Origin: Octopus vulgaris
Lineage: Eukaryota
Assembly (NCBI GenBank): GCA_951406725.2
Contig: OX597824.1
Coordinates: 88,226,001-88,290,000 of the forward strand
DNA: 64,000 nt
Reading direction: 5' to 3'
Positions 37,750 to 47,237 of this stretch are shown here, piece after piece (positions within the stretch are counted from its first letter, which is position 1; the number at the start of each line of letters is the position of its first letter). The translations under genes were made by a program, and so were the position numbers. The notes beneath the pieces are model-generated. The model was not told the DNA's origin. It saw only the letters and a list, made by a program, of their open reading frames with translations, and made no database searches.

Positions 37750-37989
37750 ATGCTCGTCAAAATGCACGCCACGGGCAGGGAAATTGTTGTAGCGGCTTCA
37801 GTTGCATTTGTCTTGGGTGTTGTAGTCGGATACAAATTAAAAACTTTACGTGTAAGCTATCTGAAGAGAGTGAAAAGCTTTTATGCTAAAAAGGCTGCTA
37901 AAATACAGAAGAAAATCGAAGAAGAAACTGGTTCGACCTGTTTTGACGACCCTTCGACTCATTCAAAAGCAGCACAGATTCCCGTCTAG
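37750..37989 (+). CDS. MTLN: Mitoregulin (MTLN/MOXI/MPM)-like single-pass microprotein, 75-79 aa (ATG at 37750 or 37762)
   Basis: MHATGREIVVAASVAFVLGVVVGYKLKTLRVSYLKRVKSFYAKKAAKIQKKIEEE aligns without gaps to human mitoregulin as recalled (17/53 identities: VAF..GV..G.....LR..YL...K.....K.A..QKK); hydrophobic helix followed by a basic coiled segment; unique non-repeat sequence. Confidence 0.8.
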   Translation: MLVKMHATGREIVVAASVAFVLGVVVGYKLKTLRVSYLKRVKSFYAKKAAKIQKKIEEETGSTCFDDPSTHSKAAQIPV

Positions 37990-38396
37990 TTTAAAATATA
38001 TCTAAAATATAAAAGAAAAACTGTCCGTTTTTACAAATAATCATATATATTTAGAAATCTATTTTTATTCAATATCATCAAGTATTCAGGTAAGTAAATA
38101 TATTTGTTATTTCTTTATTTAAGAAAGGACGGAAAGGTCACGTTGGCACCAAGTCGAGAAGGCCTCTCTGGTCGCAAGTTTTCGGGTCCTAATCATTTCG
38201 GGCTTTTTTTTGTGTGTTTTACCTTATATCATTTTGCATCCCCAGCCTTTTACATGAAACAGGTTGAAAGGGGTTTACTACTTGAGAACAGTGGTCCCGG
38301 TGCGCGCACTCGCGTTGTCTAAACTTTACCGGTGCTCTACTCAACATTTAAACATACTAATCGAATTATACGTATTTGTCCAAATTATTTATTATT

Positions 38397-38436
<40 letters not shown>

Positions 38437-38439
38437 ATA

Positions 38440-43448: not shown

Positions 43449-43498
<50 letters not shown>

Positions 43499-46400
43499 CA
43501 AAGTGAGATAGGGGTTGTGAGTGTACTGTTTTATTCTGTATTATTATGTTTGATCTTGATGTTCCTATATAATTACTTTAATAAATTATATGAATTGGTA
43601 TTATCTAGTAGTTGATGATTGATTTAAATATATTCCTCCATTTTCTTGTGGCAAGTAAAAAGCACCATCCGATTGTGGCCGTTGCCAGCCTCGCCTGGCC
43701 CCTATGCAGGTGGCACATAAAAAGCACCATCCATCTGTGGCCGTTTGCCAGCTCCGTCTGGCACCTGTGCGGGTGGCACGTAAAAAGCACCCACTACACT
43801 CACGGAGTGGTTGGCGTGAGGAAGGGCATCCAGCCGTAGAAACACTGCCAGATCAGACTGGGCCTGATGCAGCCTTCTGGCTTCACAGACCCCAGTTGAA
43901 CCGTCCAACCCATGCTAGCATGGAAAGCGGACGCTAAACGATGATGATATATGATGATGATATATATATATACACAATATGAGGGAATATTATTCTAAAC
44001 TTACAGGGAAAAATTCAATTTAGAAATACTAAATCAAATTTCACAAAATATAATATATATATATAAATTAGAAACCACCTTTTATCAATTCAATAATGAA
44101 AAATTAAATTATACCATCTAGAAAATTACATATTATAGAAAGATTAAATATATATGTAATTTTCTAGATTGTATAATTTAATTTTTCATTATTGAATTGA
44201 TAAAAGGTGGGTTTTTTCCCAATTTATATATATATATATATATTGATAAAACGGTAAGATAACAAAAGAAAGAATCTAATATGGACGCATATCATATATA
44301 TATATATATATACGTGTTATTATATGCTTGTATTGTTCATCTTTATTTGCCTATTTAAACATAACCTTTTATTACATTAACTGATTAAATAAAAATAAAA
44401 GTGTGAAGGAAGAACTGATGAAATTGTTCAAGTCCTTCATATCTTTTGTATAGAAATATTACGTAGTATATGACTAGTTTTGATTTTGAGAAATTAATGA
44501 GAATTAATGATTTTTAGTATTCATGAGAATTGACATTGAATTTATGTTTAATTTACGTTTCTTAGTGAAGGCCATAATACTGTCGGTGCCGTTGCACTTG
44601 ATAAGTTTGGTAATCTCGCATGTGGTACATCCACTGGTGGAATCACGGCCAAAAGACTTGGAAGAGTAGGTGACAGTCCCATAATAGGTAAAGTCCCTTA
44701 ATTTCAATTTTTTTCTATTAATTTTAACATGAAGTTCTGTTAATATTTTTCTCTTTTTTTTTTTTTACTTGTTTCAGTTATTTTGACTGTGGCCATGCTG
44801 GAGCTCCGCCTTTAATCGAGCAACTCGACCCCGGGACTTATTCTTTGTAAGCCCAGTACTTATTCTATCGGTCTCTTTTGCCGAACCGCTAAGTGACAGG
44901 GACATAAACACACCAGCATCTACACATAAACACACAAGCAATGCTAGGGGGACAAACACAGACACACAAACATACACGCACATACATATATACGACGGGC
45001 TTCTTTCAGTTTCCGTCTACCAAGGCTATAGTAGAAGACACTTGCCCAAGGTGCAACACAGTGGGAGTGAACCCGGAACCATGTGGTTGGTAAACAAGCT
45101 ACTTACCACACAGCCATCCTAACATAAATTGGACGGGCCTGTTGTCAGTATGTAGTCTTGATCTTTCATCAGACCTCACTACTCCTTCGCATGTCTACCT
45201 TGTCCGCAAGTACCTTCCAGTGACAACACGCTACTTTTCTCAGCCCAGCCCACAATATTCATTCACATCCCATGCCCAGATGATCTCTCTGCCATGCAGT
45301 GGGATTGAACCTAGAACCACGTGGTTGGGAAGCAAGCTTTTTACCATACAGCCACACCTACACTTGATGTTTGGCAAAAAATACATAGCTTCATCGTTAT
45401 AAAGGAAATGGGCTGTGGGTTGATTGAGAACAGATGGAGCAGTTGTAGGCCTTTGAAAATTTAGGATGATGTAGATGATGTAGATTAATGCTTGTAGTTT
45501 TGGTTTCTGATGTTAAAATTGCATTAGACTGAGGTTTAGGTGTTTCAGAGGTACGCCCCCACCTAAAAATCCCCTGTGTATTATACTCAAGGGCAGACTA
45601 TGCTCGAAGATTTACGGTATGCAATGATTTACAATTCTTGTCTCTGCTTTCTGTCCAAAAAGCAATCACATTTAACATTTATTTACCCAGGTTCTGGTGG
45701 ATATGCTGATAATAACATAGGTGCTGTTTCAACAACTGGTCATGGAGAAGCCATATCAAAAGTATGTCTTGCTAAACATATCATCCATCTTTTGGAACAA
45801 GGTAATTGAATAATCTCATAATACCAAATTCTTTGATAGTTATAAACCTTTTCCATGATAAGGGCCTTGTGTCTCTCTCTTTACTCTTTTACTTGTTTCA
45901 GTCATTTGACTGCGGCCATGCTGGAGCACCGCCTTTGGTCGAGCAACTCAACCCCAGGACTTATTCTTTGTAAGCCCAGTATTTATTCTATCGGTCTCTT
46001 CTGCTGAACCGCTAAGTGATGGAGACATAAACACACCAGCATCGGTTGTCAAGCAATGCTAGAGGGACAAACACAGACACACAAACATACATATATACGA
46101 TGGGCTTCTTTCAGTTTCCATCTACCAAATCCACTCACAAGGCTTTGGTCGGCCCAAGGCTATAGTAGAAGACACTTGCCCAAAGTGCCATGCAGTGGGA
46201 CTGAACCTGGAACCATGTGGTTGGTAAGCAAGCTACTTACCACACAGCCACTCCTGGGTAATAAAAATTATAATACTTTTAACTGGTGGAGGAAACTCTG
46301 CAAAAGTTTCCTTGTTTGTCATATATTTATATTTAGATATTTTTGCAGAATATTCCTCCAATTAGCATTCAAATAGGGATCAATAATTTTAGCATTTTTA

Positions 46401-47237
46401 GTACACCGGACGAAATGCTTAGCGGTATTTCGTCTGTCGCTATGTTCTGAGGTCGACTTTGCCTTTCATCCTTTCGGGGTCGATTAAATAAGTACCAGTT
46501 ACACACTGGGATCGATATAATCGACTTAATCTGTCTGTCTGTCCTCTCTGTGTTTAGCCTTTTGTGGATAGTAAAGAAATAGGTATTTCGTCTGCCTCTA
46601 TGTTCTGAGTTCAAATTCCGCCGAGGTCGACTTTGCCTTTCATCCGTTCAGGGTCGATTAAATAAGTACCAATTATGCACTGGGGTCGATATAATCCATC
46701 TGTCTGTCCTTGTTTGTCCTCTCTGTGTTTAGCCCCTTGTGGGTAGTAAAGAAATAGGTATTTCGTCTGTCGTTATGTTCTGAGTTCAAATTCCGCCGAG
46801 GTCGACTTTGCCTTTCATCCTTTCGGGGTCGATAAATAAAGTACCAGTTTCACACTGGGGCCGATGGAATCGATTTAATCCCTTTGCCTGCCCCCTCTAT
46901 GTTTAGCCCCTTGTGGGTAGTAAAGAAATGTATATGTGGCTATGATATGTCCACACTTACAGTTTGCGTTTCTAGCCTGGAACCATATCTTGTAAATTGA
47001 TATAATTCTTTATCATTTTTCTTTTTAGGATTTGATCCGGATGCAGCAGCTAAAGAAGCCATTAATTTTATGTTGAACAGAGTCAATGGTTGTGGTGGAG
47101 CTATAGTTTTAAATAAAATGGGACAAGCTGCTGTCAATTTTAGTACTGAGCGAATGGCTTGGGCCTGGCAAAATGAACTTGCTCTACATTTTGGATTGAA
47201 TCCAACAGAACACTTCACGGAAGTTTCGATTGTTTGA
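39146..47237 (+). CDS. ASRGL1: Isoaspartyl peptidase/L-asparaginase (Ntn hydrolase), 316 aa; join 39146-39341, 40615-40757, 42748-42917, 44566-44687, 45691-45801, 47029-47237
   Basis: Six GT-AG exons total 951 nt in frame: [24 protein letters not shown]...[10 protein letters not shown]...[37 protein letters not shown]...[29 protein letters not shown]...[15 protein letters not shown]...MAWA; ends in TGA. Confidence 0.96.
39592..39813. mobile_element. piggyBac-type MITE
   Basis: TTAA TSD, CCCTTTAG TIRs, inverted copy of 12548-12767. Confidence 0.75.
40025..40419 (+). mobile_element. Non-autonomous Helitron (same family as 1969-2314)
   Basis: TCTCTCTATATATAAAGCTG start; 3' hairpin plus CTTG|T end; colinear with the minus-strand copy at 1969-2314. 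Confidence 0.75.
40615..40757 (+). CDS. ASRGL1: ASRGL1 coding exon 2
   Basis: [21 protein letters not shown]...IVMER; TTAG and GTAATA boundaries. Confidence 0.95.
41145..41520 (-). mobile_element. Non-autonomous Helitron-like element inserted into a SINE
   Basis: TC(TC)TATATATAAA 5' end; 3' end is a long hairpin ending in CTAG. Confidence 0.65.
42227..42467. repeat. Long inverted repeat (about 110-bp arms)
   Basis: GTGTGGAAGG...TTTATAAGCCATTTAAAAACACACAAAAACCGTTAGATTCA versus its reverse complement at about 42410-42467. Confidence 0.85.
42748..42917 (+). CDS. ASRGL1: ASRGL1 coding exon 3
   Basis: [19 protein letters not shown]...; ACAG and GTAAGT boundaries. Confidence 0.93.
43142..43215 (+). 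ncRNA. Type I hammerhead ribozyme motif (Penelope/retrozyme-like minimal stem III) in ASRGL1 intron 3
   Basis: Stem I TGCA/TGCA; core CTGATGA at 43146-43152; stem II GTAC/GTAT; GAAAC at 43200-43204; palindromic loop GATC; GTA cleavage triplet at 43209-43211; AATAAA just downstream. Confidence 0.65.
44054..44235. repeat. AT-rich inverted repeat (about 75-bp arms)
   Basis: CCACCTTTTATCAATTCAATAATGAAAAATTAAATTATAC...TCTAGAAAATTACATAT versus its reverse complement. Confidence 0.85.
44566..44687 (+). CDS. ASRGL1: ASRGL1 coding exon 4 (catalytic Thr)
   Basis: [45 protein letters not shown] and GTAAAG boundaries. Confidence 0.96.
45691..45801 (+). CDS. ASRGL1: ASRGL1 coding exon 5
   Basis: [32 protein letters not shown] and GTAATT boundaries. 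Confidence 0.95.
47029..47237 (+). CDS. ASRGL1: ASRGL1 coding exon 6 (terminal)
   Basis: [27 protein letters not shown]...ERMAWAW...HFG...TGA; polypyrimidine acceptor. Confidence 0.93.

Follow-up and report, generated by a model that had tools for sequence, protein, structure and literature searches.

Can a mitochondrial microprotein and a housekeeping enzyme be encoded together on one mRNA in a mollusc? This question was raised by a 64,000-nt stretch of the Octopus vulgaris genome (assembly GCA_951406725.2, contig OX597824.1, positions 88,226,001 to 88,290,000; hereafter the window, numbered from its first letter), in which an open reading frame (ORF1) of the mitoregulin (MTLN) family is followed on the same strand by the isoaspartyl peptidase/L-asparaginase gene ASRGL1. 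The original prediction, made from the sequence alone, proposed a single spliced transcript on which the microprotein ORF precedes ASRGL1, and such a transcript was recovered in contigs from six studies. In these RNA assemblies, an exon 1 with the complete mitoregulin-family ORF is spliced to exon 2 of ASRGL1. The locus is likely expressed mainly as a single bicistronic mRNA (probability about 0.78), which is predicted to yield a microprotein of 75 residues and an isoaspartyl peptidase of 316 residues. The two proteins probably serve unrelated functions, and the microprotein gene would be carried in the 5' leader of a housekeeping gene whose promoter it uses.

Splicing of exon 1 to ASRGL1

Eight of the 24 listed runs were examined, and six of them, from six studies and with two organism labels, behave as RNA. 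The RNA nature of the runs is a guess from their index (X17 is unclassified); the splicing itself argues for RNA. All runs were available as assembled contigs, which reveal no transcript starts, ends, strand or rare forms. In every RNA-type run, a single contig jumps from 38087 to 39104 without a gap; the two sides share the letters AG, and the join was therefore placed between 38089 and 39106. The consensus donor CAG|GTAAGT at 38089/38090, predicted 100 nt behind ORF1, is used in all six runs. The splice that had been expected to lead from this donor to about 39079 is present, but its acceptor had been misplaced: the one in use (39105/39106) lies 27 nt downstream of the predicted site at 39078, which is unused in the contigs listed (minor use would escape contigs).

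The spliced contigs extend far into ASRGL1. The contigs of X8 (1676 letters, equal to the 1676 of the gene model) and X10 (1681 letters; model 1680) span from exon 1 to exon 7; those of X14 (1666) and X17 (1690), both aligned to 36.5-39.5 kb alone, have the full model length. The X1 contig (1103 nt) extends to exon 4, and the X5 contig (660 nt) to exon 2. In X14 and X17, all depth in the donor and acceptor bins is explained by the spliced contig alone, and the intron side of the acceptor is empty. No contig break was found at 39106 in any of the six runs. Moreover, the X8 contig is unbroken at a depth of 3.9, a continuity that rare read-through would hardly yield. In two large DNA-type runs the junctions are crossed unspliced, the donor by a contig of X16 (37550-38304) and the acceptor by contigs of X15 and X16. 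No alternative first exon of ASRGL1 was seen in the RNA-type assemblies. RNA-type cover of 37005-37206 is absent in X14 and X17, which was not used as proof.

A processed copy of ASRGL1 was also considered as the origin of the spliced contigs and was rejected. Among 13 candidates scored in the genome (2.8 Gb, 227 contigs), no near-identical intronless copy was found; the sole intronless match lies on another contig and is 35% identical. ORF1, which is the only match of two candidates scored, and ASRGL1 are each single copy in the genome at this similarity.

The features of the locus are listed in Table 1. The six exons behind exon 1 have GT-AG ends throughout and encode 316 residues from ATG 39146, where the start had been predicted, to 47237. 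An end of exon 4 at 42915 was rejected, as it breaks the reading frame. The exon 7 contigs stop at, or shortly before, a genomic A-run, and the AATAAA words at 47410 and 47437 suggest that the real 3' end lies slightly past 47391. On the spliced RNA, the ORF1 stop is separated from the ASRGL1 start by 140 nt, and the two frames differ by 2. Since the ORFs are in different frames and stops lie in the spacer in both, they cannot be read as one fusion or read-through protein. The final 60 nt of intron 1, together with the 40 non-coding nt that open exon 2 (39047-39145), resemble the same region of the relative P0003; its exon 2 protein is merely 82% identical, yet the surroundings of the acceptor are still similar, which hints at a constraint around the intron 1 acceptor.

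Table 1. Coordinates of the features of the mitoregulin-ASRGL1 locus in the window.
Feature	Coordinates	Strand	Basis and remarks
High-copy inverted-repeat (MITE-like) element	37289..37563		Arms 37289-37379 and 37473-37563, 86/91 identical; extends to about 37273-37606
Exon 1	37545..38089	+	Contig segments in X1, X10, X17, X8, X14, X5; 5' end from contig starts only
uORF a, 15 codons	37615..37662	+	Within 5/6 contigs
uORF b, 14 codons	37693..37737	+	TGA overlaps AUG of uORF c; within 6/6 contigs
uORF c, 4 codons	37734..37748	+	A at -3; within 6/6 contigs; putative role
ORF1, mitoregulin-family microprotein, 75 aa, intronless	37762..37989	+	Pfam PF22002, relatives, hydropathy; TAG 37987-37989
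Only AUG between ORF1 start and ASRGL1 start	37883..38005	+	Out of frame, T at -3, 40 codons
Intron 1, GT-AG, 1016 nt	38090..39105	+	Spliced out in one contig per RNA-type run (6 of 6); retained in DNA-type contigs
Exon 2	39106..39341	+	40 nt non-coding, then ASRGL1 ATG 39146; contigs and gene model
Exon 3, ASRGL1	40615..40757	+	Contigs, Pfam, gene model
Exon 4, ASRGL1	42748..42917	+	Contigs, gene model, genome search
Exon 5, ASRGL1, bears nucleophile Thr175	44566..44687	+	Contigs, gene model, alignment
Exon 6, ASRGL1	45691..45801	+	Pfam, gene model, genome search; length equals 111 unlisted letters of X10 contig
Exon 7, ASRGL1 stop 47237 and 3' UTR	47029..47391	+	Contigs, gene model

The two encoded proteins

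Judged by its sequence, ORF1 is a member of the mitoregulin family. It matches the Pfam profile PF22002 with 30 bits (cut-off 27, E 4.7e-7), residues 10-57 of a 79-aa reading aligning with positions 7-54 of the 56 in the profile. Membership was assigned by this profile match and not by direct comparison with vertebrate proteins; no vertebrate sequence surfaced in the exhaustive or the profile search with ORF1. The ORF ends at 37989, as predicted, whereas the start proposed at 37750 had to be moved: the starts of the two closest relatives (66% and 59% identity) align with ATG 37762, and the protein therefore has 75 residues, with an optional extension of four codons from ATG 37750 (the 79-aa reading).

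The exhaustive protein search with ORF1 gave 11 hits, of which 10 match PF22002 and nine are above the cut-off, with up to 47 bits; hit P0031, a bacterial repeat protein, was dropped as chance. The profile search gave 17 hits, PF22002 being present in every one, and one of them is named from a scorpion. A word-indexed homologue search with ORF1 returned no candidate, and the exact ORF1 protein is absent from the protein collection searched, whereas ASRGL1 is present. Across 23 family sequences there are six invariant columns, and ORF1 keeps the family-invariant residues. Behind a hydrophobic segment (residues 8-26, mean hydropathy 2.26) comes a basic one (25-52, net +11). The product is predicted to be a mitochondrial membrane microprotein. 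Four of five differences in other samples are synonymous (P about 0.05; a count within these samples rather than a codon alignment across distant species).

Metagenomes were also scanned, and one locus was obtained from 43 pattern matches (L002, 3262 nt). It carries an intronless mitoregulin-family ORF (L002:123-302) in a strong AUG context within animal-like DNA, and ATTAAA occurs at 370 and 388, 68 and 86 nt behind the ORF stop. No ASRGL1 match was found in 2.9 kb of L002, a contig too short to decide the pairing; the mitoregulin ORF looks stand-alone on this short contig. A single weak bacterial match (of 32, prokaryote genomes) was taken as chance, and none of 114 viral contigs gave a mitoregulin-family match.

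The downstream gene is, by its encoded sequence, an intact ASRGL1. The protein is identical (316/316) to a record named Octopus vulgaris isoaspartyl peptidase/L-asparaginase, and shares 315/316 residues with that of O. sinensis and 303/316 with that of O. bimaculoides. The Asparaginase_2 domain is full-length (356 bits). The best hits in the PDB are ASRGL1 structures (E 1e-81 to 1e-83; human, 4O0C and related, about 4e-82), followed by glycosylasparaginase (E 1e-47) and taspase (E 1e-30). The nucleophile Thr175 is in place, at the start of the beta subunit. An O. bimaculoides record (P0002) holds an ASRGL1 form of 279 aa without the 37 residues of exon 6, which is either exon skipping or a model error. 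An intronless asparaginase-2 paralogue with an open frame of 387 codons was found at G000:C4:107196040-107196915 (minus strand), 35% identical to ASRGL1.

Transcript start, translation and alternative explanations

Transcription would begin in, or directly behind, the inverted-repeat element at 37.3-37.6 kb. This element overlaps the 5' end of exon 1, and in DNA-type runs it is marked by a very high summed depth and by joints and loose ends; a related copy lies near 20350-20770. In the six RNA-type runs the contigs start at 37545 (three runs), 37549, 37569 and 37666 in exon 1, so that four to five of them start at 37545-37569 inside the element. A DNA-type contig also breaks at 37550, and the contig break is therefore likely caused by the repeat. 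The element may supply the start site. When 36.5-37.8 kb was scanned for promoter motifs, none was decisive.

The observed/expected ratio of CpG is 1.1-1.2 over 35.9-38.1 kb versus 0.37 from exon 2 onward, and the depletion starts behind exon 1. Octopus genes include a class with an unmethylated start and a methylated body (PMC9476566, which, like the other papers cited here, is used for the extracts available). The CpG profile would match this class and favour one unit; it is a hint only, because a CpG-rich stretch at 20-24 kb is also found without an identified promoter. TATA-like words occur at 38008, 38873 and 39025 (chance of at least one per region 20-30%). The claim of the original prediction that ASRGL1 has no separate promoter-like region is only weakly supported, given these TATA-like words and a CpG depletion that sets in no earlier than behind exon 1. 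The claim that no AATAAA follows ORF1 before the donor was borne out, as neither AATAAA nor ATTAAA occurs within 37990-38089 (an absence expected by chance at about 30%).

Three short uORFs, unmentioned in that prediction, precede ORF1 (37615, 37693 and 37734). The AUG contexts are CAAAATG at 37762 and TAAAATG at 37750. CAAAATG is called optimal for Drosophila (PMC9681215), a standard that may differ in octopus. The weak ORF1 AUG context that is expected of leaky-scanning bicistrons was not found, and plain leaky scanning is doubtful because the ORF1 AUG is in CAAAATG. The stop of uORF c ends 1 nt before ATG 37750, 13 nt before ATG 37762 and 381 nt before the ASRGL1 AUG. From work on GCN4 and ATF4, ribosomes are known to bypass an AUG very close behind a uORF stop. 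After short uORFs, ribosomes resume scanning and can reinitiate hundreds of nucleotides further (PMC10275272).

These data suggest a route to two proteins. Ribosomes scanning to AUG 37762 would make the microprotein, and those missing it would make ASRGL1. With uORF c translated, scanning would resume without initiator tRNA and the AUGs at 37750 and 37762 would be passed; the ribosomes would then cross 365 nt with one weak-context AUG and reinitiate at 39146. Such a uORF-assisted bypass is favoured because the ORF1 AUG context is strong, and it might be the likeliest mechanism, at somewhat less than even odds. Plain leaky scanning ranks second, as a tentative choice, and reinitiation by ribosomes that have translated all 75 codons of ORF1, or some further mechanism, is unlikely. 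There is one AUG in the 365 nt between the two starts versus 5.3 in dinucleotide shuffles (P about 0.01), and the acceptor in use omits an out-of-frame AUG at 39084, 22 nt upstream, which would be present with acceptor 39078 and whose ORF would end across the ASRGL1 start. Between the ORF1 stop and the first of six downstream junctions there are 100 nt; by the rule known from vertebrates, an RNA with only ORF1 translated would resemble a target of nonsense decay, and the RNA is nevertheless the assembled form.

Several points weigh against one bicistronic mRNA as the main product, or against this route of translation. A contig across two genes is no proof of one single transcript molecule. The word TATAAAAG at 38008, which has a 30% chance of occurrence, might act as a weak poly(A) signal or as a TATA box. 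In three of the six runs, contigs of low depth lie over the 3' part of intron 1 (X1, 38793-39008; X5, 38901-39112; X10, 38896-39121). For each of O. bimaculoides and O. sinensis, a single ASRGL1 sequence carries two RefSeq protein accessions, which implies that at least two transcript models with alternative untranslated regions are annotated. The ORF1 AUG is in a strong context, with a second in-frame AUG 12 nt earlier. The AUG deficit is non-significant when split between the ORF (1 versus 2.2, P 0.20) and the spacer (0 versus 2.1, P 0.10), and the lack of an internal Met in ORF1 has a P of 0.21. As for the uORF step, the main start site may lie downstream of uORF c.

The best surviving alternative, though improbable, is that two monocistronic units overlap: a short mitoregulin RNA would end at a weak poly(A) signal near 38008-38040, ASRGL1 would start internally at about 38039 and use the same donor, and some read-through would join them in the assembly. 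The TATA-like word at 38008 lies 30 nt before 38039, and AATATA is found at 37995/38006. The strong ORF1 AUG context would make downstream translation costly, internal starts or ends are invisible in contigs, and the paired RefSeq accessions would also fit. However, the TATA-like word could have arisen by chance at the rate given above. The two RNAs would share less than 31 nt, yet the contigs are unbroken in 6/6 runs, the low-depth X8 included.

Less probable again is a real bicistronic form next to a monocistronic isoform that begins inside intron 1 or with a different first exon and supplies most of the ASRGL1 protein. The low-depth contigs over 38793-39121 in X1, X5 and X10, the TATA-like words at 38873 and 39025 and the two transcript models per species are what such an isoform might leave; however, comparable low-depth pieces occur in introns 3 and 4, the contigs run through 39106 in all six runs, the intron side of the acceptor is empty in X14 and X17, and the sequence is CpG-depleted from exon 2 on.

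Slightly less probable still is an ORF1 that is decayed, or merely a regulatory uORF, without a working protein. Its Pfam score lies 3 bits over the cut-off, its exact sequence is missing from the protein collection, and its Atlas feature score is 0.80, a lead only (all Atlas leads are below 0.9). However, the frame is intact with the family-invariant residues kept, the relatives at 66% and 59% share the start, the differences are mostly synonymous, and no second genome copy was found. An operon resolved by spliced-leader trans-splicing at 39106 is the least credible reading: a short leader could have been pruned from contigs, but the cis join is the assembled form in 6/6 runs, and for molluscs a 2013 review, in its available extract, had no more than unconfirmed leader-like sequences to report (PMC3795323).

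One bicistronic mRNA thus remains the preferred reading. A wider and rather doubtful proposal would join its parts: mitoregulin might be an old pan-animal microprotein whose mobile intronless gene persists as the leading cistron on unrelated housekeeping mRNAs (in octopus, that of ASRGL1), with uORF c splitting the ribosomes, the supply of initiator tRNA setting the product ratio, and the inverted-repeat transposon giving the start site.

Neighbouring genes and comparison with known systems

Exons of PPME1 (protein phosphatase methylesterase 1) were found on the minus strand at 4073-4158, 5142-5213 and 12384-12476 (the last with E 4e-10 to human PME-1). This gene points away from the mitoregulin-ASRGL1 unit, and its 5' end was not found. 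A 109-nt RNA-type contig in X14 has 57 letters at 36621-36677 and the other 52 elsewhere, and ends at a minus-strand donor GTAAGT (36622-36617); a divergent gene, for which PPME1 is a candidate, possibly begins with this segment as a non-coding exon. If so, 36.7-37.5 kb would be a two-way promoter. On the plus strand, 60439-63423 encodes the proteasome subunit Rpn2/PSMD1 in one intronless ORF of 994 codons (Pfam RPN2_N, PC_rep and RPN2_C). The vertebrate PSMD1 gene has many introns, and the copy in the window may for this reason be a retrogene.

The pairing of mitoregulin with ASRGL1, of which no description had been known to the original prediction, was not found in the literature searched, which covered few subscription papers; neither were a uORF or bicistronic leader for ASRGL1, nor bicistronic and uORF reports for cephalopods. 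The main text of PMC13303939 has no MTLN or ASRGL1 apart from one reference. The octopus locus would add a mollusc case to the short list of animal bicistronic mRNAs. It also provides an octopus member of a family that, according to the extract of a review, is generally absent from invertebrates; the octopus ORF is hidden in the apparent 5' UTR of another gene, which would explain how an invertebrate mitoregulin was overlooked. If lineages pair mitoregulin with different downstream genes, co-transcription would reflect promoter sharing and not a common function. In cephalopods, depleting ASRGL1 RNA would deplete mitoregulin as well.

The octopus enzyme is similar to human ASRGL1 (PDB 4O0C and related) in its full-length match (E 4e-82) and in the nucleophile Thr at the start of the beta subunit. 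Like vertebrate mitoregulin (MTLN/LINC00116), ORF1 has a single hydrophobic segment and then a basic stretch, no evident cleavable presequence, and an ORF within the first exon; whereas vertebrate MTLN has 56 aa, the octopus protein has 75 aa and a tail that is acidic and then polar (PMC6091870, PMC11920140). The major human MTLN RNA is about 440 nt, and the extracts of the same papers describe no second gene on it.

In green-algal bicistronic loci, leaky scanning is used, ORF1 starts are typically weak, and an AUG added between the ORFs lowers ORF2 output (PMC11892635). With one weak-context AUG between the ORF1 start and ORF2, the octopus RNA may share the scarce and weak AUGs of these loci; however, its ORF1 start is not weak. 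The Drosophila sloth1-sloth2 RNA, too, comes from an invertebrate and carries two cistrons, the first for a mitochondrial membrane microprotein (PMC9681215), a location that is predicted for the octopus ORF1 product from its family. Both sloth1 and sloth2 are small, lie 5 nt apart and act on complex III, and the sloth1 AUG context is weak; whereas the octopus spacer has 140 nt with an intron, its ORF2 is an enzyme of 316 aa, and its ORF1 context would be optimal by the same source.

The vertebrate pairs STREMI-SLC35A4, MIURF-MIEF1 and PYURF-PIGY are independently older genes now on one transcript, described as 'bipartite origin, bicistronic transcription' (PMC13303939). The octopus locus resembles them in having a conserved small ORF first and an unrelated main ORF second on one spliced transcript, with proteins that would both predate the pairing and have no evident shared function. 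The proteins and the phylum are different, and translation has been demonstrated in the vertebrate cases, whereas the octopus case is known from contigs and sequence. The vertebrate downstream coding sequence is often intronless and is read as a retrocopy (PMC13303939); in octopus it is the upstream microprotein gene that has no introns, and the downstream gene has five within its coding sequence.

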